Position numbers and translations under genes: made by a program
Part shown: piece by piece, positions 41,658 through 63,454 of the stretch
Layout: each line of letters begins with the position of its first letter
Position numbering within the stretch: position 1 is the first letter of the stretch
Notes under the pieces: generated by a model
What the model was told of the DNA's origin: nothing
The model's input: only the letters and a program-made list of their open reading frames with translations
Database searches by the model: none
Source of the DNA: Chloroflexota bacterium
GTDB lineage: Bacteria; Chloroflexota; UBA11872; VXNJ01
DNA length: 64,000 nucleotides
Direction: 5' to 3'
Assembly: GCA_965208775.1 (NCBI GenBank)
Contig: OZ242360.1
Location: 2,676,699 to 2,740,698, forward strand

Positions 41658-42332
41658 GGCTAAGTTCCCCCTTTGGAACGGCCCACAACATTGTGGGACC
41701 TTCACGCGTCCATTTTACTAGGTTTCCCGCCTCCGGAACGAAGCGCCCCTGGCGCGGTATCGGCTTCCACGCCAGGGGCCAGGCGACGGTAGGTTGACGG
41801 TGAACCGTGTGGCGCAACAGGTGCGTAGGGGGCGGCGATGGGGCGTAGCCTGCGCTGGCAATCTCAGAGTCGCGCACAAGCGCCTATATAGCGCCTATAT
41901 ATAGAAAGAAGGTTTAGATAGAGCGGGAAGCACTGCTCGAAGGCGAAGAGTGAGAAGACCCGGCCTCCGACAGCGATCATGCGGTAGAGGGGGCAGTAGC
42001 TACCGGAAGCGGGGGCCCGCCAGGACTGCTGCGCGGTCATCCTTACAGCAGGCACATCTATGGAATGCAGGCGATACCCGACACGGCATGGAGCGAAGCG
42101 CGGGCGTCACCGCTCTGAGTTGACCCCATCACAGCACCGGATGAGAAGCCACTATTAGCAAGTCATCCGACCAGAGCAGAGTCAGACTAGACGGGGATTT
42201 GGCGCGGTCCGGATACCTGGGTACGTAAACCCTCAGGTTTACATAACTGGTGAGCCGCCCTGGCGGTCCGAGCGGAGAACTTGCGCCAAGGAGACGACCG
42301 GAATTGGGTCTCTGGTCAGACCGGCCGACGCC

Positions 42333-45895: not shown

Positions 45896-47184
45896 TTGGC
45901 AACTCCTTGTTTCTCGAATTGATTTGCGTCGTTCTGCAGGGAAGCCGTATCGCCCGTAAACGCCTCCCACCGCCGGACCGCCACGTCCACGTAAGCCGGT
46001 TCCTGCTCGATCGCGTAGCAGATGCGGCCCGTGCGCTCGGCCGCGATGATCTGGGTGCCCGACCCTGAGAACGGCTCATAGACGATGTCTCCCGGCTCCG
46101 TGTGGTACTCGATCGGGCGGATGAATAACTCCACCGGCTTCTGTGTCGGGTGGACCCCGAAGCTCTCGAAACGCTGGTCGACGTTCCAGATGGTCGAGAC
46201 ATTGCTGGGAGGCTTACGCTTGGGCATCTTGCCCTCCACCCACCCGACAAAGCACGGCTCGTGTCTCCAGAGATAGAAAGAGTGGGTCAGGACGCCCCGG
46301 GCCTTACACCAGATGATCTGCTGATGGACAAGAAGCCCGGCCTTGATCCAGGCCTCCTCGACCAGCGCCTGCCTGCGATGGGCATGCCATTGATAGACAG
46401 CGGAGTGAGACGCGAGGTGCGCCAATCCTGCAGAGAGAAACTTGAAGTAGAACTCCACCGACGACTCGGGATCGTGGTAGTCGTCCCAGTGCTTATCTCG
46501 GTTCGGATCGCCTTTGTTCGACCTGCTGGCGGGGTGACTTCCGCCCCGATAATCGACGAGATACGGCGGGTCCGTCGCCATGAGTGAGGCCCGCTCGTCT
46601 CCGAACAGGCGGCCCACGTCGGCCAAGTCGGTCGAATCGCCGCAGAGCAAGCGATGGTCGCCCAATTTCCATATGTCGCCGGGTTGCGCCACAGTGTCCG
46701 CCTTTGCGGCGGCCAGGGCGGCCTCTGGATCGAAGTGCTCGATGCGCTCGCGCTTGTCCTGGGCGTCCAGCGACCTGAGCAGCTTCGCAACCTCGTCATC
46801 GTCGAAGCCGGAGAGCGAGACGTCGATATCGGGAGTAGCGTCCAGCTCCGACAACAGTCGGGCAAGCAGTTCCTCGTCCCACGAGCCGGAAATCTTGTTG
46901 AGGGCCAGATTCAACAACCGGGCCTGCTCGGCCGACAAGTCCACAAAGATCACCGGCACGGAGGCGAGACCGAGACGACGGGCCGCGAGTAATCGCTGGT
47001 GACCTCCGATGACCGTCTTGTCCTCGCGGCGTGCGATGACCGGATCGACGAACCCGAACCTGCGCATTGATCGAGTCAAAGAGTCCAGCTCCGAGTCTGA
47101 TATGCGCCTGGGGTTGGCGGGATCCGGGCGCAGGTCGTCGATGGGCATGTGGACAACGGAAAGCTTGCGGTCAGTGGTCGACAT
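45886..47184 (-). CDS. ParB-like N-terminal domain fused to a beta-class N6A/N4C DNA methyltransferase
   Basis: ParB-N: PIDDLRPDPANPRRISDSELDSLTRSMRRFGFVDPVIAR...IGGHQRLLAARRLG. MTase: DPPY (LMATDPPYLV) precedes the AdoMet motif EPFSGSGTQIIAAERTGR, i.e. the beta-class permutation. Confidence 0.85.
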   Translation of the reverse strand: MSTTDRKLSVVHMPIDDLRPDPANPRRISDSELDSLTRSMRRFGFVDPVIARREDKTVIGGHQRLLAARRLGLASVPVIFVDLSAEQARLLNLALNKISGSWDEELLARLLSELDATPDIDVSLSGFDDDEVAKLLRSLDAQDKRERIEHFDPEAALAAAKADTVAQPGDIWKLGDHRLLCGDSTDLADVGRLFGDERASLMATDPPYLVDYRGGSHPASRSNKGDPNRDKHWDDYHDPESSVEFYFKFLSAGLAHLASHSAVYQWHAHRRQALVEEAWIKAGLLVHQQIIWCKARGVLTHSFYLWRHEPCFVGWVEGKMPKRKPPSNVSTIWNVDQRFESFGVHPTQKPVELFIRPIEYHTEPGDIVYEPFSGSGTQIIAAERTGRICYAIEQEPAYVDVAVRRWEAFTGDTASLQNDANQFEKQGVAKCS

Positions 47185-48066
47185 TTTGAATCTCCTCTAG
47201 TTGGTAGCCAGAGCGTCGAACGAAATGTACGAGGTCGATGTGGCAATGATAGAGCAACTTCGTGTCACTCGCTGCGTAAAAGATGTCGTATTGCGGTACC
47301 GAGATGCTATTTTGAGTCCTCAGGTGGGGACCACATGCCGCTCGCCGGATCTTCGCAATGGACTTCCCCCGCACGGCTGATTCCGATGCGTGATTCTGGG
47401 AGGGGTCGCTACCAAGGCAGTGCCAGGCTAGATCGAACCTGTCGACACAAGTTTGACGGCCGCGTCCCGGGGAGTCGTGATGGACGGTTACTGGCGGCCG
47501 CCGTGCCCGCGTAGAACATGCCGCGAACCGTCTTGTCAACTTGGTAGGGCAGAATCGGCGTCAAGAAGGGGAAACGACATCAGCCGACCGTTAAGAATCA
47601 GTCTGGCGATGAGACTCTCAAGGGGCGGGATGAGCTCAGCTGATCATGTATTGTTCGCCTGGTGGGTTGTTGTGCCATTGTTGAAACAGAATCGCTCCGG
47701 CGAGGACTGCGGCAGTCAGCGAGTCAATGTCAAGGCTTCAAACGTTGGCCGCAGAGCGGGTCGGTTGCTCCGTCAGTAGCGCAAGAACCGCAAGCCACAG
47801 ATCAGGTTTACAGCTGTCGGCTGTGGATCGATCGCAGTTGCTCAAGCGCGACGTACGCACGCTGCTTGGAGAGGCCGGGCACCCCCGGTGTGCTCCATGT
47901 GCTGAGCGTTACGTGTGGGGTTGACAAATCTTGGTAAACCGGCTGTTTCGGAATCCAGATATCGAGGATGACGGCGGGCGGCGTCCGGCTGCCGAGCCGA
48001 CCGTTTCACCGGCGGAGTGCAACGGGTGCGGTGCAACGTCCTTGCGAAGTCGGAAAGTAGCCTCAA

Positions 48067-48732
48067 TCACATCAGCGCGACGCGGTAAGAAGACAGGATC
48101 TCCTCCACGTAGAGGCGTCCCGCGCCGGAATCGAGATTGCGGTCTGCCGCCGGCACCGGCAGACCGTCGGTGACCTCCTTGAAGCAGCCGTCGGGGCAGC
48201 GGTCCGCAAAAAAGACATATGCGAAACCGTCCGGCTCCCGATGGGATCGCCACGTCAGGCCGGCCGCCGACGGAGCCCACGTGCGGATGGCCGAAGACCA
48301 GCGTCGTGTCATGGCGTAGTCGGCGGCGGGCGCGGTCGTCAGCCAGGAGTCTTGTCCCAGCGCGGCCAAATCCACGCCCGACCGGAGACTGACGAGTTCG
48401 AGCTCCAGAGTCGTCGCGAGACAGCTGATTCGCAGATCCGAAAGTCTGATGCTTGGAAGCAGGCGTGCACCGTAGTCGTCGAACGGGAGGTCACGGAGCA
48501 AGACCTCTGCGACGGCCGTCGGATCGCTGTCGGCCGCGTAGAGAAATGCGTACTCATCGCCGGGCGTCGAATCGAACCGGCCACCTTGCAGATCGCTTCG
48601 AGCCACCGTCGGATTGAAGTCGACGACGTCGAAGGCGGCGCTATGGATGCGGGTAAGCCTGGTACCTGCCGGCAGAACGTAGAGGCGTGGGACTCCCCGG
48701 TAGCGTGGCGGGGGAGCTTGATACGGCGGCAA
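48067..48732 (-). CDS. RES-domain toxin
   Basis: GGRFDS (Arg), LYAADSDPTAVAEVLL (Glu), GLTWRSHREPDGFAYVFF (Ser) in the usual RES order. Confidence 0.75.
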   Translation of the reverse strand: MPPYQAPPPRYRGVPRLYVLPAGTRLTRIHSAAFDVVDFNPTVARSDLQGGRFDSTPGDEYAFLYAADSDPTAVAEVLLRDLPFDDYGARLLPSIRLSDLRISCLATTLELELVSLRSGVDLAALGQDSWLTTAPAADYAMTRRWSSAIRTWAPSAAGLTWRSHREPDGFAYVFFADRCPDGCFKEVTDGLPVPAADRNLDSGAGRLYVEEILSSYRVALM

Positions 48733-48738
48733 GCCCGC

Positions 48739-49455
48739 TTACCCGACCGGTTCGACGACGGCCTCGGCGACGTTGACGAGGTCGTCCGCACGGCCGGTCC
48801 CGACTAGGTCGACGGGGCGGGCATTGAGGCGCGCGTGCCGGGATACCCACCAGGATGCTACGCCCCAGGGATCGCTCACAGCTGAGAGACGTTGGTTGAC
48901 CGCCCGCACCTCGGGAAAGGTGTTACGTCGTTCGGGGTCGAACTGGAACGCGGGGTATACAAACCCCCGGCCGGATGGCAGACCGAGCAGCCAGGAACGT
49001 TCGCGATACTGCCTGACTTTCTCTCGATTCGTGCGTTTTGCGCCGAGCGCTACTGCAGCGTTTCTCGACTCGAGCATAGGCTCGCGCCAAATCGTCTGGA
49101 TGGCCTCGCCTCGGGTCATCGCCTGGTCCATGGTGGTAAGTCCGGTCTCATGGAGCACGCGATGGGGCTCGCCCCCGAGTTGCCTGGCGAGATCGGTTCG
49201 CAGTGCGACCAGCGTCAGCCAGCTGCGGAGCTGGGACTCGTGGCCCTCCAAGGCCTGGTGGCGTGCGGCGAGCGAGGCCGCGGCATCGAGCAGGTCGGGG
49301 TCGCGTAGCGGCAGTTGACCTATGAGTCGCAGCAGCAGTGCGCCGGCGTCGCAATCTCGGCGTGAGACGAAGAACAGGAGCGCTTCCTCGAGCTCCTGAT
49401 CGTCAAACTCCTGCTCCAGCTCCAGGATTCGTCTGTCCAGTTCGCGCTGACTCAC
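48739..49455 (-). CDS. Xre/MbcA/ParS-type antitoxin (DUF2384-like C-terminus) for the RES toxin
   Basis: Lies 6 nt upstream of the RES gene. The C-terminal ...SDPWGVASWWVSRHARLNARPVDLVGTGRADDLVNVAEAV resembles the toxin-binding domain of RES antitoxins. Confidence 0.6.
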   Translation of the reverse strand: MSQRELDRRILELEQEFDDQELEEALLFFVSRRDCDAGALLLRLIGQLPLRDPDLLDAAASLAARHQALEGHESQLRSWLTLVALRTDLARQLGGEPHRVLHETGLTTMDQAMTRGEAIQTIWREPMLESRNAAVALGAKRTNREKVRQYRERSWLLGLPSGRGFVYPAFQFDPERRNTFPEVRAVNQRLSAVSDPWGVASWWVSRHARLNARPVDLVGTGRADDLVNVAEAVVEPVG

Positions 49456-49614
49456 GATGACATCCCCTGCACTGACAGTGGCACAGCAATCTTATCATCG
49501 TCACGATTGTCAACCTCATCAAGTTGTCATATATCGACTGGAGAGATCCAAGGGGCAATTGGTGGGGCGTCTGGTGTGGTCGAGCCGGGTCATCGAGACG
49601 GTCTCGGAAGTACT

Positions 49615-49785
49615 GGTCCAGCTAGCGATAAACGCTTGTTTGGAGGCTAGCAAATCATTTACGAACACTACCCTCGGTAGCAATCGGGATTTGGTAGTGA
49701 ATGTTGGTCAGGATCGGACGAGAACCGGGCCAGATCTAGCGCCGTTCTGCCGGCAGGGGAGGCACACGAGCGGAGTCAGGGGCCA
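49615..49785 (+). repeat. copy A of a ~170-nt paralogous non-coding element
   Basis: Aligns with 56845-57015. Shared blocks are gtccagctagcga.aaacgc, ctagcaa, ggtagtgaatg.t.gtc.ggatcggacgaga and cgccgttctgccggcaggggaggc.cacgagcgg.gtc.gg. Confidence 0.7.
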
Positions 49786-50195
49786 GTGAAATCCGTGAGT
49801 CGAAAGCTGTGCTGATTATGAGCATGCGCCCAGGTTCGCACGTGTCGGAGTTCGTTAGCGCGATGTGGCGACAGCGCGGTGAAGTCCACCGCTGCCCGGC
49901 TACGCCACCATTGCCCGCCTTGCGCTACTTCTCGCCCGTAAGCCTGAAGACGAGGCCGTTCATGATGAGCACCGACGGGATGAAGGCGAGCACAGTCACA
50001 AAGGACGCCCCCATTTGTCGACGTTGTAGGTCAGGCCCTGCCGTACCGCTATAGTCATGCTCGCAAACGTCCACACAAAGGTAAGCAGCACGATCAGCAT
50101 TCCAATGGGACTTACGTTTCAATATAAACACAAGCGCCCGATCTTACGCTTGACTTGAAATCCGCCTTTCGTCCGCTGGCGCTCACTTTCTTAGC

Positions 50196-50471
50196 CTATT
50201 CTTCCCCCTCAATCTTCCGAAGAATCCTCTGTAGTTCGGAGACTTCGGCTTTGGTAAGCATGGATAGATCCGGCTTACGCAGCTCTTTGCCATCTTCCCT
50301 CGTCCATGCGATCCATTCCTCGACCCTAAATCGGGCAATTGCGTTACCGTCACGCTTGAAGGTCAAGTCTCCACTTCCGGGATTCTGATTGTCGGCCTCT
50401 ATCTCAATAGGGGCTTCACGGTCCTTAAGGTAGACCCGGTAGGTGTACAGTTGAGTTTCTTCTCCGGCCAT
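50196..50471 (-). CDS. hypothetical protein (91 aa)
   Basis: Clean ORF with balanced composition (MAGEETQLYTYRVYLKDREAPIEIEADNQ...). No domain recognised. Confidence 0.4.
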   Translation of the reverse strand: MAGEETQLYTYRVYLKDREAPIEIEADNQNPGSGDLTFKRDGNAIARFRVEEWIAWTREDGKELRKPDLSMLTKAEVSELQRILRKIEGEE

Positions 50472-50915
50472 CCGGTTCCTCCTGAACCCGTAGGCTCCCG
50501 CTCGAAAGGGCCGGCGGAGCGGGTATACCGATCAGTTGGGGCGGGGACAGCCGTGAAATGCCCCCCATCAGTCACGGCTGCCCCCTCGTCATATGTTCGT
50601 CGGAATCCTCAAGCTAGCTCGCGGCACCATGTGGCATCACCACCGTTCGCCTGCTACACTCCACGCGAGTGGCTAAGCCCGTGCGATAGGGGCCACAAAA
50701 ACGACGAGCGAGTCGCAATCGCTCTGAGGGCATTGTAGCAGCCGGTTCGTAGAAACTGGCTGCTTCTGCTTTCTGGACCTACAGCATCTAGCGACCGCGC
50801 TACCTGCCATACGAGATATTGTGGGGCGTTGGTCTCACCGCGCGACCAAACATCCCCGTCAACTAGATAGCTTCGCCCCGTTTGTTGATTATCATTTCAT
50901 AAATGAGGCGGAACG

Positions 50916-51881
50916 ATGGCACGCAAGGCACCGGAAAAGTGCCACCGCAAGGGCATGTCGCTTGAGGACCTGTTCGACCGGTTTCCCGACGATGCCGCTG
51001 CCGGGAAGTGGTTCGTTGAAGCCCGCTGGCCGGACGGGATCCGCTGTGCTCACTGCGAAGGCTCGAACGTAGCCCGCTCCACGCACCCGACGATGCCAAA
51101 TCACTGCCGCGACTGCCGGAAGTTCTTCTCGGCCAAAACGAAGACGGTCATGCACTCTTCGAAGATCGGCTACCGCAAATGGACATTGGCGATCTACATC
51201 CTGACGACCAACATCAAAGGCGAGTCCAGCGTCAAGCTACGCCGCGATGTCGGCCTGAAGACCCAGCGGGCCGCGTGACACTTGGCCCACCGAATTCGCA
51301 AAGCTTGGCAGTCCGAAGGCGGCATGTTCGCTGGCCCGTTCGAGGCCGATGAATTGTTCGTGGGAGGTAAGGAACGCAACAAGCACGTCGGTCAGTCGGT
51401 AAGCGGCTGAACGCCGGACGTGGCACAGTCGGCAAAACGGCCGTCGCGGGCGTGAAGGATCGCCCTACGAACCGCATAGCGGCCAAACCCGTGGACGCCA
51501 CGGACGCTACAGGGATTTGTCGTAGAGCCAACAGAACCGACGGCAACCGTCTACACGGAAGGCGCTCGCGCGTACGATGGACTGCCAAAACTCCGCGAAG
51601 CCGTACGACACAGCGTCGGAGAGTACGTGCGCGAGATGGCCCACACGAATGGGATTGAGTCCTTGTGGGCAATGTTCAAGCGTGGCTACGTCGGCACGTT
51701 CCACAAGCTGAGCGAGAAGCACTTGGACCGCTACGTAGCCGAATTCGCCGGTCGGCACAATCAGCGCCCGCTCGACACGATTGACCAAATGACCGCGATG
51801 GTTCGCGGCATGGACGGCAAGCGGCTCCGCTACGTAGACCTCATAGGACCGCCGGAGAGGCGACAGCCCAAGATGTTGTAG
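50916..51881 (+). pseudogene. IS1595-family transposase with internal stop and frameshifts
   Basis: N-terminal Zn ribbon CAHCEGSNV...HCRDCRKFFSAKTKTVMHSSKIGYRKWTLAIY. The frame is lost after 51278. The C-terminal part HTNGIESLWAMFKRGYVGTFHKLSEKHLDRYVAEFAGRHN...GKRLRYVDLI is in another frame (51627..51881). Confidence 0.8.
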
Positions 51882-51923
51882 GCGGGCATTGCCACAACAC
51901 CATATGCTGTAGCCCGGACGCAA

Positions 51924-51987
51924 AACACGCTAGCCCGAATCGGGCTAGCGTGTTAATTTCTTTACAGAGGCGTCGCAAGCGCCTCTG
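51924..51987 (+). terminator. two consecutive perfect hairpins after the IS1595 remnant
   Basis: AACACGCTAGCCCG-aat-CGGGCTAGCGTGTT (14-bp stem, 51924-51954), followed by aatttcttt. CAGAGGCG-tcgcaag-CGCCTCTG (51965-51987). The T-tract is weak, so they may instead be IS-end or REP-like structures. Confidence 0.4.
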
Positions 51988-52083
51988 AACATCTTGGCTT
52001 CATGCGAAGGAAACCACAACAGGCCGGATTTTATCGGCCCTCCGCGCGGAGCCGCAAGTCCGCACGAGCGGAGGGAGGACGTC

Positions 52084-52254
52084 ATGAAAGACGCCTACGA
52101 ATCTCAGGATCCAAAGGCCGAGGTCCCGAAAGTCGACCGTGACCAGAAGGATCCGGAAAAGACGATCCATGTGCCGGCGCACTGGCGACGACCGCCGCGT
52201 CGGGGAGCGAAGGCGACACCACCGAAGCGATTCAGAGTTCGCCTGCACGGCTAA
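52084..52254 (+). CDS. small basic hypothetical protein (56 aa)
   Basis: GGAGGGAGG RBS just upstream of the ATG at 52084. MKDAYESQDPKAEVPKVDRDQKDPEKTIHVPAHWRRPPRRGAKATPPKRFRVRLHG. Confidence 0.4.
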   Translation: MKDAYESQDPKAEVPKVDRDQKDPEKTIHVPAHWRRPPRRGAKATPPKRFRVRLHG

Positions 52255-52330
52255 GCGAGTTCGCCTACAAGAACGGGAGGTAACAACCATCTATTTCGAC
52301 GATGTAGCGTTCGCAAGGTTGCGAGAAACG

Positions 52331-52765
52331 ATGCGCCAGGTGGCCATTGCCCAAAAGGCTGCTGCGATACATTTTGAGCAAATACGTCGATTCCAGGAGC
52401 TGCATGCCGGTACGGTCAGAGAAGCCGTCGAGACCGTCTCAAGAGCGATAGATTCGAAGGGACTGTCGCTCACTCTTGAGCGACTCGGTAACGTTGCGAC
52501 ACCAGTGAACAAGCAACTCATGAACGCGGAAGTAGCGAAGGCCTCGCAACAACTAGCCATCGCGGCGGCATCGAGGCAGCATGCCGCTCCAATTTGCTAT
52601 GCGCCATCACCCGATCGCCAAAGGAGACTCGCCGATCTAGAACGCCGTATCGATCAGTTGGAACGAAAAGAGTCTGCGGCTCCAAATCGAGGTTCTAGCT
52701 CGCCCAGAGGCCCCGGGAAGCAACGGCGAATCGGATTTCTAGCAGACCGGAGCGAGGATGACTGA
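52331..52765 (+). CDS. hypothetical coiled-coil protein
   Basis: Trimmed to MRQVAIAQKAAAIHFEQIRRFQELH. The upstream part of the track ORF is Arg-rich junk overlapping the previous gene. The start is uncertain. Confidence 0.35.
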   Translation: MRQVAIAQKAAAIHFEQIRRFQELHAGTVREAVETVSRAIDSKGLSLTLERLGNVATPVNKQLMNAEVAKASQQLAIAAASRQHAAPICYAPSPDRQRRLADLERRIDQLERKESAAPNRGSSSPRGPGKQRRIGFLADRSEDD

Positions 52766-52773
52766 GTTCGGCC

Positions 52774-53010
52774 GTGCGCCTCTTGAGAAGCGGGACGGCA
52801 GTCATGGGTGATAAAGAGGAAGAGCATGAGGGTGTGCGTTGGCGACCCAACGTCTTGTTGCTCATGCTCCTGGCCTACGGCTCGGTGATAGGCCTTTTCG
52901 TAGGGCTGGTGCTATCGGGGCTAGGGGCGATGGAAGCGTATAACCTAGTCAGCGTTCCGTTCGTGGCCTTGATCGGCGGGACGCTTGCGGTAGTCAAAGA
53001 CCTGCTCTAG
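52774..53010 (+). CDS. small two-TM membrane protein
   Basis: NVLLLMLLAYGSVIGLFVGLVLSGLGA and VSVPFVALIGGTLAVV helices. Confidence 0.4.
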   Translation: MRLLRSGTAVMGDKEEEHEGVRWRPNVLLLMLLAYGSVIGLFVGLVLSGLGAMEAYNLVSVPFVALIGGTLAVVKDLL

Positions 53011-53076
53011 CCCCAACAGACCTTCACTACAAATGCAAGGGAACTATATACGTGTGTACCCCAAGGGGCGGGGAGG

Positions 53077-53313
53077 CTAGTCTTGGCTAAAGCATTTCGG
53101 GCATTTGTAGAGATATCGTGCCTCAGCGCGGTTTGCGTAGGCGACAAGAAATCCGAAGGAGATATCGTTGTCACATTGCACCCTGACTCGCCGTCCATGG
53201 TCGCTGCTTTCGCAAACCGCTAAATGCAAACTGTCTTTGCTACTTGGAGCGATGGATTTAACGTAGCGCCCGGCTAGCCTAACTTTCACGCCTTCGTTTA
53301 GTTTGATTTCCAT
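53077..53313 (-). CDS. hypothetical protein (78 aa)
   Basis: GGGGAG RBS upstream. Ends with a CPKC pair. Last gene of a small same-strand cluster. Confidence 0.45.
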   Translation of the reverse strand: MEIKLNEGVKVRLAGRYVKSIAPSSKDSLHLAVCESSDHGRRVRVQCDNDISFGFLVAYANRAEARYLYKCPKCFSQD

Positions 53314-53319
53314 ACTCCC

Positions 53320-53580
53320 CTATCCCCCCAGAACTTTGCGATGCTGAATGACGCGATTGAAAATTAGGTTACTCAAGCCGCTGGTCGCCATCATTAACTC
53401 AAGCATGTTCGTCTTGCGCTGATTAATTTCATCGTCCACGTTACTCCGCAAGGCTCCTTGAATCTGGTCGGGAAGAGGATCGGGCAGCTCTTTGATGATT
53501 TCCGGCAGCACAAGACAGACGGCATCAATGGCAGTTTCCAGATCGGCAATTCGTTCGTCAGCGTCATCGCTAGCGGCCAT
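53320..53580 (-). CDS. hypothetical helical protein (86 aa)
   Basis: Start trimmed to MAASDDADERIADLE, with a GGGAGAA RBS upstream. Confidence 0.45.
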   Translation of the reverse strand: MAASDDADERIADLETAIDAVCLVLPEIIKELPDPLPDQIQGALRSNVDDEINQRKTNMLELMMATSGLSNLIFNRVIQHRKVLGG

Positions 53581-53623
53581 TAGGTTTCTCCCTTGCTCGA
53601 TCCCAAGACGGAGCCGCCGTCGG

Positions 53624-53923
53624 TTACGGCGCGATCCCGTCAGACAAGCCATTGCGGACTAGATGGCTCTTAAGCTGATCCTTTTGGCTTAGACAGTCCT
53701 TTAGACAGTTAATGTCGTCAAGGACGGACTGTAGCTTGCCTAAGTCTTCCGCGTTGCGATTCGTAACCTTTAGAAACCGGGAATGCTCTAGGTCATCCAA
53801 AGTTTCCGCTACAAGTTCAAGCGCGTTTGTCGCCTGTCTTATCCTCTCGCACAGGTCTTTGATTTGACGCTCGTTCTTGCTGTAATCCTGCAACCAGCGG
53901 CCTACCTGGGCATCGTTCGGCAT
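53624..53923 (-). CDS. hypothetical coiled-coil protein (99 aa)
   Basis: GGGAGGAAG RBS directly upstream of the ATG at 53923. Helical, heptad-like sequence. Confidence 0.5.
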   Translation of the reverse strand: MPNDAQVGRWLQDYSKNERQIKDLCERIRQATNALELVAETLDDLEHSRFLKVTNRNAEDLGKLQSVLDDINCLKDCLSQKDQLKSHLVRNGLSDGIAP

Positions 53924-54072
53924 AGCTTCCTCCCTTACCCGACCTGTCGCCGCTTGTAGAATGTTTGAGACCGGAGCCGTTTTTGCGGTCCGACTCCGGT
54001 CTCAATAGCGGCAGTAGTCTTGCACACAAAAATGTACCGTCTCGTATACCGCCGTGCAAGGCAGGCGCGGGA

Positions 54073-54561
54073 CTAGCGATCCAAATAGTCCACAAAGCGC
54101 CAAGGCGGTCGGCGCGGCTTCCTGCCCAATTGCCTGCCAATCCAGTACCAAGCGCGTTCGGATAGGAGCCTGCGGTTGGCAAGCCAGTCCGTCGCACGTA
54201 GAAGCCGGGTCCGCCGGGTGGGGCGGGAGCGCAACGTAATCTTGACCAGTCTTCGCCGGGCGTCGTAGTCAACATCGTTGTTCACCTTGCGCACGAGCGG
54301 GAGCACACGGTCAATCTCGCATTCTACGAAGGCATTCTCGCGAGACTGTTCTGCATCACGAGCACGCTTGACGATCCGGTGCGCTGGGTTGAAGAATCCG
54401 CGAATCTCGTCAAACCAGTACACAGGAGCGATAAGCAGACAAGCGATCAGGACGTAGATCGTTGTGCGTGCCCAGAGAGGGACGAATTCCGTAGTCTCGC
54501 CAATAAGCGCAGTGCCGACCTGGATCACGATGAGAATTCCAAAACCGACAGTCTTCCGCAT
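54073..54561 (-). CDS. hypothetical membrane-anchored protein
   Basis: Two N-terminal TM helices, then a basic soluble tail. Confidence 0.45.
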   Translation of the reverse strand: MRKTVGFGILIVIQVGTALIGETTEFVPLWARTTIYVLIACLLIAPVYWFDEIRGFFNPAHRIVKRARDAEQSRENAFVECEIDRVLPLVRKVNNDVDYDARRRLVKITLRSRPTRRTRLLRATDWLANRRLLSERAWYWIGRQLGRKPRRPPWRFVDYLDR

Positions 54562-54632
54562 CCGCGCATCGTAGCAGTAAGATTGGTCGGCATTGCCGAC
54601 GCCGTTTCAGCGGTCACGGTGTACACAGGTAT

Positions 54633-55005
54633 CTAATTCCCTTTTTTGAGACGTAGGTCCCATTCCAATACCGGTATGAAGCTGATCACTTCGAGCAGCG
54701 CCGGCGTCTGCGCGAATCCCGTGCCGCGAGCCAGTTGTCCCCAATCGGCTTCGGTCTCTTCCGTCCTCGAAATCGTCGCGCCGATCAGCCATGTGAACGC
54801 CGCCCAACTCACCACTCCACGTATGTTGCCCAGGACGAGTACCCTCACCACGTCGACTTCCTCACCAGCCAGCATCTGGCCAACAAAGCTGGCAATCGTG
54901 ACGAGCACCACGACGATCAGCGCCTGTCCGGTAGCGCCCCGATCTCTCTAGCTCGTCATAGGTGTCTGCACTCAAGCGGGCGGCGCCCAGCATCCTGTCT
55001 AGCAT
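54633..55005 (-). pseudogene. Yip1-family membrane protein, frameshifted
   Basis: MLDRMLGAARLSADTYDELER (frame of 54862..55176) continues in another frame as ...LVTIASFVGQMLAGEEVDVVRVLVLGNIRGVVSWAAFTWLIG (54633..54911). Confidence 0.45.
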
Positions 55006-55302
55006 TGAGTCTCTCCACGTAGGAATGCATGTGGCTGGCCGCGATCCGCTAAGTGACCTGTACCAGGTCCCGAATCCCCGGCTGTCTTTTTCCCGCCGGC
55101 GTCCCGAAGAACTTCGCCCCAAATGCTCCGGCGGTTGTTCGTTGAGCCACGAAACTGACTTTCCAGTTGGTACCAAAATGAGGGCAAGTCCGCATCCCGG
55201 TTTCCTACAGCCCTCCTGGCCCCATTCTCGGGGCCGCGGTCGTAGAGGCAGTGTATTGTCGTTCTACGCCGTGCGGCGGTATACTTTACGGAACGGTATC
55301 TG

Positions 55303-55617
55303 GTGATGGAGACCGGTGTGCGGCGATTCACCGATGAGGATGGGGTCGAGGTTCGGCTCACCGACGAGCGGCTCAGGCACATCTTGCGAAGGCACCCTGA
55401 GATGGCCTTCCAATTGCACCGATTCGCCGAGACCCTCGCCAGCCCGGACGCGGTAAGTCCCTCTAGGTCCAGCCCGGCGGTCCAACTCTACTACCGGCTC
55501 TACCAGGATCTGCGAGGCAGGAATCGCTACATCTGCCTCGTGGTGAAGAGAGAGACAGGCTACTCCTTCATCCTTACCGCCTATCTCGACCGGAGAATCA
55601 AAGGAGAGCTGCCATGA
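55303..55617 (+). CDS. RelE-fold/PBECR- or DUF4258-like putative toxin
   Basis: VRLTDERLRHILRRHPEMAFQLHRFAETLASPDAV...YICLVVKRETGYSFILTAYL follows the HI..RHPE...I..TL..PD pattern. The ATGA overlap with the next gene suggests coupling. Confidence 0.5.
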   Translation: MMETGVRRFTDEDGVEVRLTDERLRHILRRHPEMAFQLHRFAETLASPDAVSPSRSSPAVQLYYRLYQDLRGRNRYICLVVKRETGYSFILTAYLDRRIKGELP

Positions 55618-56039
55618 CGAGCAAAAAGGTCTATGTCTCCTATGACCATGAAGGTGACATGCTTGAGGTCCTGTGGGCGTTCCGGGAGGGATACTTCACC
55701 CCCACCGACGACCAGCGTGTGTTAAAGAGGCTTGATGACGACGGCGAGGTCATCGGGTTCCTGATTCACGAGATGAGCACTCTCAAGCAGCCCGATGCAG
55801 TCGAGTTCGAGTTGGCATCCGAGGTCCCCGCCGATGACGTCGCAAACGTGACCGTGCGAGAGGCAGCCACTCGACTGGGCATCTCGGAACGACGGGTTCG
55901 ACAGCTTGCTCAAGAAGGGCGGGTCCGGGGAGCGATGAAGACGGGAGCGGAGTGGCTAATTCCGACTCCGGTGGAGGTCAAACCTGGAAAGAGGGGCCCC
56001 GTTGGAATTGCTGGGCGCGCAGATGTCAAAGCGGAGTAG
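55614..56039 (+). CDS. DUF2283-like domain fused to an excisionase/MerR-type HTH (putative antitoxin)
   Basis: VYVSYDHEGDMLEVLWAFREGY...DDDGEVIGFLIHEMS (DUF2283 pattern). VTVREAATRLGISERRVRQLAQEGRVRGAMKTGAEWLIP (HTH_17-like). Confidence 0.6.
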   Translation: MTSKKVYVSYDHEGDMLEVLWAFREGYFTPTDDQRVLKRLDDDGEVIGFLIHEMSTLKQPDAVEFELASEVPADDVANVTVREAATRLGISERRVRQLAQEGRVRGAMKTGAEWLIPTPVEVKPGKRGPVGIAGRADVKAE

Positions 56040-56193
56040 ACGCTCGACCCCGGGAGAGCGACGCATGAGGCCAAGTACCTCGGCGAGTTGTTTCCCGCGT
56101 CGATCACGTCCGACCCGGAGGGAATGTCATTCCTTGAATTCTTCCAGACAGAAAAGGACACCGGTCAGGCAAAAGGGATCGTTGCTATAGACG

Positions 56194-56634
56194 TTGAGGT
56201 CTCAGGTGATCAAGAACGAGCGTCAATACAGGCTCACCAAAGCACAGGCCGCGCGATTTGCGAAGACTCTGAAGGGACTCGAACAAGGTCCCAGCGGAGT
56301 TGACGTAGTGCATCCCCGGATCGTGCAAGCTCAGCAGGATGCGGTCAGTAGCCAGCTGGCGGATCTCGAGCGAGAGTTGCGCGAGTCTGAAACGTCAAAG
56401 GAGGGTGGATTCACGCCTGATGAGCTAAACGTCGTAGACGAGTTGGCAACGGTTCTGATCAAGGCGCGGATCGCTCGGGGATTGACTCAGAAGGAACTGG
56501 CGGAGCGGATCGGAGTCAAGGCACAGCAGATTCAGCGCTACGAGGCGACCGACTATAAAACTGCCAGCCTTGCTCGAATGAAAGAGGTCGCGAGCGTGCT
56601 GGGAGCGAGCAACCAAGAGGCCTCGACCGGATGA
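56194..56634 (+). CDS. XRE-family HTH protein (HigA-like, with N-terminal extension)
   Basis: LIKARIARGLTQKELAERIGVKAQQIQRYEATDYKTASLARMKEVASVLG. Confidence 0.7.
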   Translation: MRSQVIKNERQYRLTKAQAARFAKTLKGLEQGPSGVDVVHPRIVQAQQDAVSSQLADLERELRESETSKEGGFTPDELNVVDELATVLIKARIARGLTQKELAERIGVKAQQIQRYEATDYKTASLARMKEVASVLGASNQEASTG

Positions 56635-56844
56635 GGCGCACCGCCCGCTTGGTCGTTGGCTCTGCAAGGTTCGTGCCAGCAGCTAAGTCAGTGCTGCGAG
56701 CAGCTGGATCGGTCCCGGTAGGAAAATGAGCTCGTCGAGCGGAGATGGAGACCGGATAGCTGCGCCGGAGGGTTGTCGGCGGCGGTATAATGGGGCAGAC
56801 GCTAGACGCAGATTTGAGCGAGGATTCGCAGAGTAGTCGGAGCG

Positions 56845-57015
56845 GCGAGAGGCCGTCCAGCTAGCGAAAAACGCGGGTCTGGGGACTAGCAACCATTACC
56901 AAACGGTACCTTTGGTAGTCAAAAGGCCTTTGTGGTGAATGGTAGTCGGGATCGGACGAGATTCGGATCGGATCGAACGCCGTTCTGCCGGCAGGGGAGG
57001 CGCACGAGCGGCGTC
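56845..57015 (+). repeat. copy B of the ~170-nt paralogous non-coding element
   Basis: See 49615..49785. It lies immediately upstream of the decayed comM remnant. Confidence 0.7.
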
Positions 57016-57149
57016 TGGACCGGGCTAGGGGAGACGCGGACAATAACCGAACAGCTCACGAGAAAGCGCTTTGCGGCGCGTGTCTCGTCGAAACCGGCCG
57101 CAAATCGACTCATGCTCAATCAAGGTCCCCGGCTCGCCCTGCGGCGCGA

Positions 57150-57925
57150 CGGGTGCGGACCGGGCGGCCGTCGGTTCGTTGTAGCCAGGACCGAAGACCT
57201 CGACGCCGAGCGGCGGCGTTTCGATGTAAAGAGCCTGTTCTAGAACCTAGAACGGTCTTGTGGCGAGCAGTCGTCGGAGGCACGGAGCGGGCATCGGGAG
57301 GCGACCGGCTGGGCTCAAACCGCGAAGAACCTAAGTGGGGAAACTGGAACTAGGAGAACCGTGCCCGGAGTTGAAGCTTGAGACGTCCCGGGCGCAAGGA
57401 CTAGGCGTCAGATGGCCAGGATTCTCAGCAGTGTGTAGCAGTAACTGGCAGCGATGCCCCTGCGGATATCTCGGGGACGCGCGCAGAGAGTGCACCTGCA
57501 CGCAGTCGCAAATCACGCGCTATCGCAGGCGGATTTCCGGTCCGCTTCTGGATCGAATCGACGTGCATGTTGAGGTGCCGCGGGTGAAGTACGAAGAGAT
57601 GGCGGGAGTTGCGACCGGGGAGCCGTCGGAGAGCATAGGACGGCGAGTCACGGAGGCGCGAGAGATCGGAGCCAAGCGGCTGACCGGGACGGGAAGACTC
57701 ATGAACGCGGAGATGAATGCGAAGGACGTGGACAGGTTCTGTGACACGGACCGGGATGCAGAGTCATTGCTGCGGCACGCACACGACCGGTTGCAGCTTT
57801 CGGGGCGTGGGTTTCACCGGGTGTTGAAGGTGTCGCGCACGATAGCGGACCTAGACGGGGCCGAGCGGATCGGAGTCTCGCATCTGGGCGAGGCTCTGCA
57901 ATATCGCGCGCGGGCTGAAGACTGA
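57150..57925 (+). pseudogene. comM: comM/yifB (Mg-chelatase-like ATPase) 3' remnant, 5'-truncated and decayed
   Basis: The tail is well conserved: CPCGYLGDARRECTC...YRRRISGPLLDRIDVHVEVPRV...GRGFHRVLKVSRTIADLDG...HLGEALQYR. Upstream homology (TSRAQG..F.AV..SN; VVGG..GD) is weak and needs a frameshift. No Walker A/Lon-like N-terminal half anywhere in the window. Confidence 0.75.
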
Positions 57926-58123
57926 CAAAAAATCCCGCAATGCCGGGCTCGATCTTGCGGGCGGATAGTCATCCTGTGTGCGCCAAGATCTGGCTTATGG
58001 AACCCCGCCTGGTCTGGGACCACATCGACGGCGGTAGGGGCGGCTCGACCGGCATCGGCTACGAGCCGGGTCTCAGGTAACTCTTCCGCTGAGTTCGTTC
58101 GGTCTCTGCAACAGATATCCGAC

Positions 58124-61100
58124 TTAGGACTCTTGGGGGCCTTCCTGACGAGATTCGAAGCTCGCATCCAAATCCAGGTAAAGCTGCAACAGTTGCTTCC
58201 GTATTTCAGGCTGGGGATCTTTCCAAAGCCCCCGCTCCATAGCTTCCAGCAACCTTTCCACCATTTCCCTTAATGCCCAAGGATTGCTTGTCCGAAGGAA
58301 CTTCTGCGTATCGGACTCGAGCACGTAGTTCTCAGTAACGTCCTGATACATCCAGTCATCGATGATTTCGGCTGTAGCGTCGTAACCGAACATATAGTCC
58401 ACCGTCGCAGCCAACTCGAACGCACCCTTGTAACCGTGGCGTTTCATCGACTGAATCCACTTCGGATTCACAACTCTGGTGCGAAATACCCTTCGGGCTT
58501 CGTGTCGGAGATCTCTGTTCGTGGCACGTGCAGGATCGGCGCTGTCGCCCATAAATTGGCGGGGCGCGCGCCCAGAAAGAGCGCGGATTGTTGCAATCAT
58601 GCCGCCGTGAAATTGCATATAGTCGTCGCTATCGAAGATGTCGTGCTCGCGAGTGTCTTGGTTCTTGGCGGCGACCGCGATTTGCTCAAATCGTTGCTGG
58701 AACTGTCTTCGTGCGGAGACGCCGTGATCCTGCCGCGTGTACGCGTATCCGCTCCAAGCGGTGTATACCTCCGCTAGATCTTTCACGCTGTCCCAATTTC
58801 GCTCGTCGAGAACCGCAAGAATGCCTGCACCGTAGGCACCAGGCTTGCTTCCGAAGATTCGATACAGACTCCGATTGCTCGCCTTGCACCTGGCGACAGT
58901 TTCCGTTTCGGCCTGACAATCCTCCGGGGGATCCTCCAGTCGCGTCAGGTCCTCCGACAGATGCTTGACAACGTAGTTGTCCTCAGGAGACTCATCCTGA
59001 GAGGCTGCTATTTCCACCGCCTCGTCAAGCAGGTTGATGAGATTGGGGAATGCGTCTCTGAAGAATCCGCTGATGCGGATGGTAACGTCGATGCGCGGAC
59101 GGCCCAGCTCGGTCAGAGGTATAACCTCCAAGCTCAGAACTCGGCCGCTCTCCGGCTGCCACACGGGGCGGACACCCAGCAAACGAAGTATCTGAGCCAC
59201 GTCGTCCCCGTGAGTGCGCATAGCCGAGGTCCCCCAGACGACCATGCCAACCATCTCTGGGTATCTGCCTTCTTCGTTTTGGAATTTCGCAAGAAGGGAC
59301 TCGGCTAGTTGAGTTCCGGTCTCCCAGGCAACTTGAGAGGGAACGGTCTTGGGGTCGAGGGAATAGAAGTTGCGACCTGTAGGCAGTACATTTGCCATGC
59401 CGCGCGTTGGCGCACCGCTAGGTCCGGGCGGAATGAAGCCCCCTTCCAATCCCCGCAGCAAATTGCGAATCTCGTCCGGCGTCCGCATCAGGGCGGGATA
59501 TACGGTCTGCGCGACGTAGTCGAGCACCGACTTCGTTTGCGCGTCGGGCGCTCCCAGGACGCTGTCAACCGCATCTGCTGATTCTCGAGGTTGAAAGCCT
59601 CGTCCAAGAGCCTCGCGGTAGAGCTGCCGACATAACTGTTCTATCCGCTCCAGGACATCTCCGTTAGTACGGACCGGCGCTTCGATGTCCATTTGCTTGA
59701 GTACGTCGGGGATCGTGCTGTTTGGGGGTGCTCCCAGATGAGCCGTCAGTTGGGAGTAGTCGAACCCCAAAGCGTCCGCTACCGAACGCCGCAGGCTCGG
59801 GACACTTCCGATATCGAGGCGCGTCAGAGCGGAGAGCATTTCAACCAACTGATCGCCGCGGGGAGACTCTCCCAGTATGTGGAGGCCATCCTTTATTGGT
59901 GAATCCTTGAGTTCACAGAGATAGTGATCGATGTCTTGCATGAATTCGTCAAAATCGTCGGGCGGATGCTCAACAGCGAGATCTCGGTGTAGTTCAGCCT
60001 GATGCAAGATCTCCCATATCTTTGTTTCCAAGACAGGGAGCTTTCGGGGGTCAAGGGTCCGACACTGGTAGTGTTCATCCAGCAGTTGCTCGAGCCTGGC
60101 GATGTCCCCGTAACTGTCGGCGCTCGTCATCGTGGGAATCAAGTGGTCCACGATCGCGGCGTGAGCACGGCGTTTCGCCTGCGTACCCTCGCCGGGATCG
60201 TTGATGATGAACGGGTAAAGGACGGGTACGTCGTCGAGAACCACGTCCGGCAAGCACGTCCGAGACAGACCGATTCCATTTCCCGGCAACCATTCGAGCG
60301 TGCCGTGTTTACCGATATGAATGATCGCGTCGGCTTGAAAGACGTCGCGAAGCCAGCGGTAGTAGGCCAGGTAGTGGTGTGTCGGCACCATGTCGGGACT
60401 GTGGTAGATCGCGCCGGGATTCTCTCCGAACCCGCGTGGCGGCTGCAGCCCGACAAAGATGCTGCCGAATTCTAAGCCGGCTATCGCCAGATTCCCGTTA
60501 CTACGGTAGACCTCCCCAGGAGGTTCGCCCCAAGCCTGAGTCAGCCTCCTCGCCACCTCCCGCGGTAAATCGGAAAACCAGCCAGTGTATTCCGAAGCGT
60601 TCACGTGGCCTGCTGCAAGGCGGAGTTGTTTGTCAGTAAGGAACTCGCGGTCACTGCTACAGCGGTCGATGATGCGGTGGATTAGGTCGTCACCGTCATG
60701 AGGAATGTTGGTAACGGTGTAGCCCTGGTCTTTGAGGGCATGGAGCACGGCGACTACCGATGCCGGCGTATCCAGTCCCACGGCGTTTCCGATGCGTCCG
60801 TCTTTCGAAGGGGAATTGCCGAGAATAATGGCAATCTTTTTCTCCGAATTCGGCTTCCTTCCGAGGTTGGCCTGCCTGATCGCCAGACGGGCCGCCGCAT
60901 CGACGCGGTCAGGCCTCGGCAGATATCGCTGCAGCCGGCCGGAGAAGGTGGAGGAATCACTCAGAGAGGACTGTTCCTTGAACGAGATTGGCACAGAGAT
61001 GAGTCGTCCATCGAACTCAGGCAAGGCGACGTTCATCGCTGTATCGATAGGTCCCAGGCCAACGGAACTGTTCAGCCAAGCTTCCTGCGTATCGACACTC

Positions 61101-62755: not shown

Positions 62756-63208
62756 TCTCCAATCGATTAGTTGGGACTGCAGCTTCTCCTGAGCGTCGAG
62801 AGACTTGCGTCAATCGCCTCGCACTTCAGACAGTCCTAGCGTGCCCAATGGGACTGGATGAGGAACGAAACCATCGATGTAGAGTACTCGACTGGCAAAG
62901 GTAGTCCGACTGGTTCATTCGGATGCTGGAACCGTGGATTACGCCCTCTCGGTTGTCGATCGAGGACTCCCGGCGACAGTAATCGGAACAATCCCGGTGA
63001 AGCGTGATTTCGACAATATCAATTCTGGTACCACCAGCCTGGACACTACCAACTAGCCCGGCTCGTGACACTCTAACGACCTCGACGGCTGGCTGGAGTT
63101 ATTGGGGCAGACTGATCGGTCCGGCGCGTATTGGATTGTCAATGGGTCTGTGATCTTGACAGGCGCTCAACCCACTGTTAGGTTCCGTCGACCATTTTTA
63201 GGCAAGCC

Positions 63209-63370
63209 AGCCCGGTGCGCTCGATAAGCGTGCGCGAATTTGGGAAAGCGGTGAGAATCCGCTGCGGAGGCGCCACTGTAACCGGTTAGCCGCCCGCTAA
63301 TGCCACTGTCCTTGATGGATGGGAAGGCGCGGGAATGGCCATGATCCGGAAGCCAGGAGACCTGCCGGGC
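63209..63370 (+). promoter_or_regulatory. cobalamin (B12) riboswitch aptamer
   Basis: TGGGAAAGCGGTGAGAATCCGCTGCGGAGGCGCCACTGTAACCGG core. B12 box GAAGCCAGGAGACCTGCC at 63348-63366. Closing helix GCCCGG (63209)/CCGGGC (63365-63370). Confidence 0.85.
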
Positions 63371-63454
63371 TGGACTGAGCGGTCGCTCCTCGTCCAGGGA
63401 GTGCTCAGGTTCCAGAGGTTGCCTGTCGAGGGCGACTGACGGATCATCGGAGTG

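Follow-up and report, generated by a model that had tools for sequence, protein, structure and literature searches.

The window analysed here is a stretch of 64,000 nucleotides from a Chloroflexota bacterium (contig OZ242360.1, positions 2,676,699 to 2,740,698 of the forward strand), near the right end of which two copies of a non-coding repeat, A and B, precede the 3' part of the gene comM. Window positions 49616-49780 and 56855-57018 are 78.9% identical over 166 nt (BLASTN, E 2e-29), which is far beyond chance, and the copies are in direct orientation, both on the + strand. An earlier note on this DNA had aligned 49615-49785 with 56845-57015; MAFFT likewise aligns these along their whole length and contains all three of the identical blocks named there, and the coordinates are good to about 10 nt. 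The repeat reaches beyond the 170 nt noted at that time, with a profile of the longer unit matching 49550-49848 at A and 56739-57325 plus 57333-57461 at B. The repeat, 175 nt long and termed the core below, is the best-kept stretch of a non-coding right-end unit of about 800 nt, which links the last cargo gene of an integrative element to its attachment site, attP. Positions in the unit are numbered with the first nucleotide of the core as +1, and A and B are also named A3 and B3 where the other copies in the genome are concerned. The features central to the argument are as follows.

49550-49848, + strand: copy A, a truncated unit covering about -62 to +238 (nhmmer, hmm 49-349, E 4e-30)
56739-57461, + strand: copy B, the complete right-end unit of element 3 (nhmmer, hmm 6-586, E 7e-73, and hmm 668-799)
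56786-56791, + strand: TATAAT, a -10-like box 65 nt upstream of the B core
57059-57204 (approximate), - strand: block II of the unit (+209 to +354), a pseudogene-like ParB-methyltransferase fragment, residues about 133-196
57455-57457, + strand: TGC crossover core of attR, in a Cys codon of comM (four-junction alignment)
57457-57925, + strand: 3' part of comM (Pfam Mg_chelatase_C, 1e-30)

The comM gene is split by a 230-kb insertion. Its N-terminal ChlI domain is encoded at genome positions 2502648-2503010 and its C-terminal domain at 2734315, 231 kb away; within the window the latter follows B, at the island/chromosome edge where the earlier note had placed it. Self-comparison of the 230 kb between the two halves showed that the same 2.8-kb left-end sequence begins at genome 2503635, 2575283 and 2636126. 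This left end encodes a 535-aa large serine recombinase (LSR; Pfam Resolvase, Recombinase and Zn_ribbon_recom, on L011:3080-4687) and a 335-aa tyrosine recombinase (Phage_integrase), both on the minus strand. The three LSR genes (genome 2503633-2505195, 2575239-2576843 and 2636082-2637686, all outside the window) are 93-100% identical. When the four junctions are aligned, the only sequence they share is TGC: one reads comM 5' half/TGC/LSR end, two read P arm/TGC/LSR end, and the last reads P arm/TGC/comM 3' half. The comM reading AAMNP/CPCGY is restored across this core. Since P arm/TGC/LSR end occurs twice, with the comM halves outermost, comM holds three tandem head-to-tail elements of 71.6, 60.8 and 98 kb, and it is at 2575283 and 2636126 that the tandem junctions join a P arm to an LSR left end. 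Each is a comM-targeting LSR integrative element, with the LSR at one end and the target gene present in two recoverable halves. Together they form a tandem composite island built by serial integration, with their own recombinases, head-to-tail order and attP-like junctions. The LSR gene extends across attP, its stop codon being about 47 nt past the TGC core, and integration swaps its last approximately 15 codons; in the attL copy, the match covers residues 1-521 of 535 and no more.

Exactly five core copies are present in the 3.24-Mb genome, all on the + strand (BLAST and the sequence-only covariance model R1). In addition to A (core 49616-49790, R1 score 138 bits) and B (core 56851-57030, 146.7 bits), these are:

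genome 2572814, + strand: copy A1
genome 2574680, + strand: copy B1
genome 2635530, + strand: copy B2

All five lie between genome 2.57 and 2.73 Mb, inside the insertion that splits comM, and A1/A3 and B1/B3 form two subtypes. Each B copy is found about 430-440 nt left of a junction, and the unit generally lies about 430-500 nt inside the TGC crossover, from which it follows that the att site is not the repeat. The homology among the flanks of B1, B2 and B3 stops at window 57457. B is the live right end of element 3, with attR 430 nt further right, and the 1.4-kb block around it is 95% identical to the end of element 1. The earlier judgement that the copies are not att sites therefore stands, as the crossover TGC is about 430 nt right of B and A has no att half-site; the statement that B abuts comM does not, as about 430 nt of element DNA ending in an attP half-site separates B from 57455-57457. 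Spare attP sites were rejected, the pattern of the left attP half-site occurring once in the window, at 57434-57456. The core of A is 93% identical to that of A1, and both belong to a 6.3-kb block shared by elements 1 and 3 at 97% identity. The unit profile is covered from hmm 6 to 799 in the B copies, from 45 to 632 in A1 and from 49 to 349 in A3; A is thus a unit minus its attP-proximal part. A1, A3 and a third relic at 41702-41940 are recombinase-less remnants, truncated units with no LSR gene behind them.

An open reading frame (ORF) that continues into the C-terminal part of comM begins within element DNA (window 57335-57457), and the Pfam Mg_chelatase match extends 29 codons left of the crossover. 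Resemblance between the attP and attB half-sites is a more likely cause of this match than decayed comM sequence.

The earlier note had offered three hypotheses for the repeat: serially accreted integrative elements whose end sequences are retained, an element-borne non-coding RNA, or a genome-wide miniature inverted-repeat transposable element (MITE). The first fits, A and B being stacked element ends. The third fails: five copies, all on one strand and in one island, do not make a dispersed repeat. A dispersed MITE or repetitive extragenic palindromic (REP) origin was also rejected on the copies in relatives, which mostly adjoin LSR genes. Nor does the repeat have the fixed ends of a MITE, with homology stopping at +167, +194, +231, +297, +336, +385, +521 or +684 depending on the copy and no terminal inverted repeat visible in the 57-copy alignment.

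The right-end unit is previously undescribed and lineage-restricted. When the order was searched, the core turned up only within the family to which the window belongs, in four related Chloroflexota metagenome-assembled genomes (MAGs) with 32 (G416), 13 (G390), 7 (G415) and 6 (G414) copies. An exact degenerate pattern of its best-conserved part was run against 185,579 species genomes and matched these four MAGs alone; the same exact-pattern scan found no match in IMG/VR or the JGI metagenomes. In most copies, homology is unbroken from about -110 across the core and enters an LSR gene whose start is approximately 460-500 nt downstream, and LSR positions coincide with unit positions. Orphan units also occur, as in G416, where there are 32 units and 21 full-length LSR genes. 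These fall on contig C1 of that MAG, between 3.13 Mb and the contig end plus 0-0.30 Mb; if the contig is circular, the LSR elements cover about 0.97 Mb of a 3.8-Mb chromosome, roughly a quarter of it. The genes upstream of -110 vary, and include RES with its partner, DUF6932 with HTH_3, nucleotidyltransferase, PIN, M78 peptidase and IS110 genes. In four copies (L033, L036, L040 and L051), the IS110-family transposase gene precedes the unit by about 300-1450 nt, which may represent targeted insertion into conserved backbone sequence. In the core tree, A1/A3 and B1/B3 are sisters (99/97 support) and B2 groups with G416 copies. Identical or near-identical 175-nt cores are found across two genera (L026 in G414 and L029 in G415; L036 in G414 and L040 in G415), which indicates recent horizontal exchange of elements.

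Read from left to right, the first landmark of the unit is a -10-like hexamer at about -65, often within a short palindrome (CCTCGA ... TCGAGG). In 31 of the 49 distinct upstream contexts this hexamer matches TATAAT at five or more of six positions while keeping T1, A2 and T6, and in 19 it is exact; T1, A2 and T6 each reach 80% conservation or more, although elsewhere this stretch varies at 46% of sites. The core, +1 to +175, contains inverted and direct GGTAGT-type repeats as well as an 8-7-8 inverted repeat, CCAGCAAA / CACTACC / TTTGCTGG. The palindrome CTGCCGGCAG is specific to the copies of this genome and is not conserved in relatives. Block II, on its minus strand, resembles the ParB-methyltransferase of the island around GDxWxLGxHRLLCGD and has the same orientation as the real gene. 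Searches of the units with that protein (tblastn) gave E values down to 5e-8, with 49% identity over 39 aa, and the unit profile also matches window 46602-46746, inside the real gene. Its stops and lack of codon periodicity make block II pseudogene-like. Control of the methylase mRNA by an antisense transcript acting in trans is unlikely, as the match between fragment and gene is imperfect (longest perfect run read, 8 nt). An AT-rich motif follows near +375, then the attP half-site and TGC near +684. The scanner found no intrinsic terminator on the + strand; a GC hairpin with a T/A-rich stretch behind it is frequent near +355 to +385, but not consistent from copy to copy. A near-consensus DnaA box was seen by eye in some copies only and is thus not conserved. 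The unit is non-coding, as first described: there is no 3-nt periodicity from -200 to +655, and the LSR part shows a strong, three-fold phase effect. A coding reading was rejected, single-base indels being common and the ORFs across the region not conserved between copies.

Constraint across the unit was gauged by mean pairwise p-distance, as follows.

Core: 0.23
Block II: 0.22
attP region: 0.13
LSR codon positions 1 and 2: 0.095
LSR codon position 3: 0.25
Other non-coding parts of the unit: 0.36-0.46

The core evolves at about half the rate of the non-coding DNA beside it in the unit, and the constraint on it is moderate at best, part of its conservation being due to shared descent. A pairwise breakpoint scan of the MaxChi type was discarded, its signal tracking rate changes rather than recombination.

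The surroundings of A, and the DNA between A and B, bear on how the two ends came to lie so close together. They comprise:

41702-41940, + strand: third, shorter unit relic (nhmmer, hmm 287-523, E 1.3e-10)
48067-49455, - strand: RES toxin gene and 238-aa partner gene, the end genes before unit A
49507-49535, + strand: promoter-like TTGTCA, 17-nt spacer and TATATC upstream of copy A (read from sequence)
49849-56039, no strand: variable cargo between the units, with an IS1595 remnant, small ORFs and a PBECR2/helix-turn-helix (HTH) pair (Pfam)
56040-56634, + strand: 5'-truncated DUF6932 gene (56040-56195), then HTH_3 gene (56194-56634), the end genes before unit B

The gene at 48067-48732 (minus strand) has a Pfam RES match (2e-19), and the adjacent 238-aa ORF (48739-49455, minus strand) has no Pfam hit. 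Of the Xre-RES pair whose promoter region A was said to abut, the RES half thus has Pfam support and the Xre half has none. At six loci in relatives, a gene for a 238-250-aa RES partner lies directly upstream of a full-length unit that runs into an LSR gene, indicating that RES, partner, unit and attP make up a normal right end. The TATATC before A is at about the -10 position of the unit when aligned to the unit consensus by eye, and was not flagged by the consensus scanner. The relic at 41702-41940 includes the TATATAGAAAG motif and suggests a further stacked former end in element 3.

The cargo between the units includes an IS1595 zinc-ribbon remnant, consistent with the decayed IS1595 reported before, and PBECR2 and HTH genes at 55303-56039 (Pfam). 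Where element 3 has 49849-56039, element 1 has only about 0.6 kb, and the homology between the two is interrupted from 49780 to 56044. The DUF6932 and HTH_3 genes (Pfam, 4e-39 and 7e-11) lie at the far side of this gap. DUF6932 retains only residues 136-187 in element 3, whereas residues 1-189 are intact in element 1 (genome 2573471-2574028, tblastn); the truncation at 56040 is the right edge of the variable cargo, with 6.2 kb of other cargo lying between. Element 1 preserves a simpler stacked state: A1, a spacer of about 170 nt, intact DUF6932, HTH_3, B1 and attP. The high identity of elements 1 and 3 stops within A at +167. As A1 and A3 both continue past this point as diverged unit sequence, +167 is a conversion breakpoint rather than an element end.

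The repeat is real, and its explanation is an ordinary one: it is the scar of stacked element ends in a composite LSR island. The reading favoured here, to which we give a probability of roughly 0.7, is that A and B are right-end backbone copies of an LSR defence-island family stacked in comM. The LSR of this lineage-restricted family inserts elements into a Cys codon of comM. In the simplest history, two elements would once have stood in tandem, A being the right end of the upstream one, which lost its attP part. A deletion from inside the first unit into the second element would have removed attP, the recombinases of the second element and most of the left side of the latter, thereby fusing the two, and the composite right arm would later have been duplicated between elements 1 and 3. 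If A is such a fused former end, the 7-kb 'module' is residual and later-acquired cargo of the downstream element rather than something moved by the repeats. Contrary to the earlier proposal, there is no mechanistic sense in which the repeats enclose a discrete module; they are two stacked element ends, of which A is truncated.

As to function, our best guess, though tentative and at somewhat less than even odds, is that the intact unit forms an outward-facing, probably repressor-controlled promoter with a transcribed leader, judging from its sequence. In this scheme, the conserved -10 box within the short palindrome about 65 nt upstream of the core would start transcription on the + strand, which would proceed toward attP by way of the 175-nt core and then the old fragment of the methylase gene. 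Only with attP intact, in a circle or a tandem array, would the transcript meet the LSR gene, whose last 15 codons lie across attP, and recombinase expression would thereby depend on the integration state. The fuller proposal that the unit is an integration-state sensor is doubtful. Its promoter would yield a non-coding RNA of about 430 nt, consisting of leader, core and the antisense of the methylase fragment, that would converge on the LSR gene only when attP is intact and would damp or time its expression, which would make it a counterpart of lambda sib that acts by convergent transcription; we know of no such integration-state control in LSR elements.

Several observations weigh against the favoured reading. 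The -10 box is missing from 18 of the 49 distinct upstream contexts; no canonical -35 is present 16-18 nt from it, and the promoter scanner found nothing. The core changes at close to the rate of LSR third codon positions, such that much of its conservation could reflect shared descent rather than function. The fusion-by-deletion history of A is one that we infer from present structures. In addition, A and B are sister lineages in the tree, which leaves duplication of an end segment within the genome as an alternative.

Among other explanations, an element-borne gene for a structured non-coding RNA is improbable. The mild advantage of single-sequence folds over shuffles on the + strand (z -1.2 to -2.0), which the minus strand does not share, would suit such a gene. 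So would the two-helix hairpin and 3' hairpin returned by a filtered RNAalifold run with RIBOSUM scoring. One local hairpin (columns 50-57 / 65-72) is weakly positive, with 5 of 500 shuffles reaching its score, a level that related sequences can attain without structure. Against this, RNAalifold on all 57 rows gave no structure, the whole structure scored 0.126 for covariation where shuffles averaged 0.129 (393 of the 500 did at least as well), and the top mutual-information pairs are not Watson-Crick and reflect subfamily linkage. There is also no excess of G·U over A·C (114 and 110, leaving out four G·U-majority pairs), and block II shows neither a consensus fold nor compensatory changes. 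Rfam 15 gave nothing at gathering score on the whole window besides a cobalamin riboswitch elsewhere, and searches of A, B and one relative's unit at E up to 10 returned noise only, in keeping with the earlier view that the repeat fits no known RNA. The structured RNA reading of the unit, which the earlier note had suggested, is thus unsupported. The riboswitch (RF00174, 115 bits) is at 63196-63383 on the + strand, outside the island. Inverted repeats that are conserved with no compensatory changes suit a DNA site better, and the core may instead be a cis-acting site for a putative backbone protein, such as the ParB-methylase, a 569-aa protein, the tyrosine recombinase or an HTH regulator. Its role could then be that of an origin, of a site for transfer or packaging, or of an accessory site in recombination. 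We consider this unlikely, if well worth keeping in mind. The best-conserved part of the core has four half-sites of the GGTAGT type, which form two inverted pairs with a spacing of about one helical turn, the arms CCAGCAAA and TTTGCTGG change together between subfamilies, and the orientation and distance to attP are constant. However, about 20 copies have mismatched left and right arms, and the IMG/VR exact-pattern scan found the motif in no phage contig, which counts against mimicry of a cos or pac site. LSRs are, to our knowledge, not known to require accessory sites.

The core and block II may also be functionless scars of an old rearrangement that cut a ParB-methylase gene beside attP, passed on to every descendant and recognisable still only through the youth of the family, which appears rather unlikely. 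Block II is clearly a piece of the methylase gene, with stops and without periodicity, and in one copy its frame runs on colinearly into the core's right half, where DPxR...DYH is weakly matched. The near-equal divergence of the core (0.23) and LSR third codon positions (0.25) and the lack of covariation would also be expected of a scar. Such a scar would not readily account for the core and block II diverging about 40-50% more slowly than flanking non-coding DNA within the unit, for the preferential retention of the core in truncated copies or for the conservation of the critical -10 box positions. Far less probable is a role for A and B as a pair of attC-like or pdif-like recombination sites that capture or exchange a 7-kb cassette. 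Their direct orientation around variable cargo, the end of high identity between elements 1 and 3 within A at +167, and the presence of a tyrosine recombinase in every element would be compatible with this. Yet the right edge of the variable segment (56040-56044) is inside the DUF6932 gene and not at B, +167 is a conversion breakpoint past which both A copies continue as unit, and most elements have a single unit. Source reads gave no reliable A x B joint: among source-sample contigs on 48000-58500, a joint from 49779 to 57133 is uninformative, as it has 30 nt on one side and comes from a contig of the paralogous element 1.

Three known systems offer partial likenesses to the arrangement favoured here, stacked right ends of LSR elements with a putative outward promoter. 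In the sib retroregulation of phage lambda, a sequence beyond attP, downstream of int, is joined to int only when the phage is not integrated; the int transcript carries sib as a defined RNase III hairpin (work of Guarneros, Echols and colleagues in the early 1980s). The likeness is one of geometry only, the unit lying across attP from the 3' end of the LSR gene. In contrast to sib, the unit has no supported structure, and its sole promoter-like signal points toward the recombinase gene, in antisense. The circle-junction promoters of IS911 and IS30 are element-end promoters whose target changes between the joined and the integrated state, and they drive the transposase in sense. The unit would resemble them in having a putative element-end promoter with a state-dependent target, but this promoter would converge on the recombinase gene. 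Staphylococcal cassette chromosomes (SCC), which are serine-recombinase cassettes with defence cargo, pile up head-to-tail at one site and leave behind recombinase-less pseudo-elements and repeated end sequences. Their repeats are the att core (ISS/DR) itself, whereas the piece repeated here lies 430-500 nt from the core and is not the recombination site. The likeness is to the composite SCC/SCCmec arrays at rlmH in staphylococci, mediated by Ccr serine recombinases (PMC11470126).

The Mg-chelatase/ComM (YifB) gene family is the target of 12.4% of predicted site-specific LSRs (Durrant et al. 2022, PMC10083194). The elements described there in Mg-chelatase/ComM genes share with those of the window a Resolvase/Recombinase/Zn-ribbon LSR, insertion into comM and a very short core. 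They differ in that three to more than 20 elements are stacked in tandem here, the recombinase gene itself crosses attP, and a conserved non-coding unit of about 800 nt, not described in that work, lies beside attP.

If the outward promoter proves true, the unit would be a simple natural case of LSR expression tied to integration state, which would be of interest to users of LSRs as genome-engineering tools. For the island family itself, the 175-nt core marks where comM-targeting serine-recombinase defence islands end, or once ended, on the right. It allows past integrations to be counted and the formation of composite islands to be traced, through tandem insertion followed by internal deletion.

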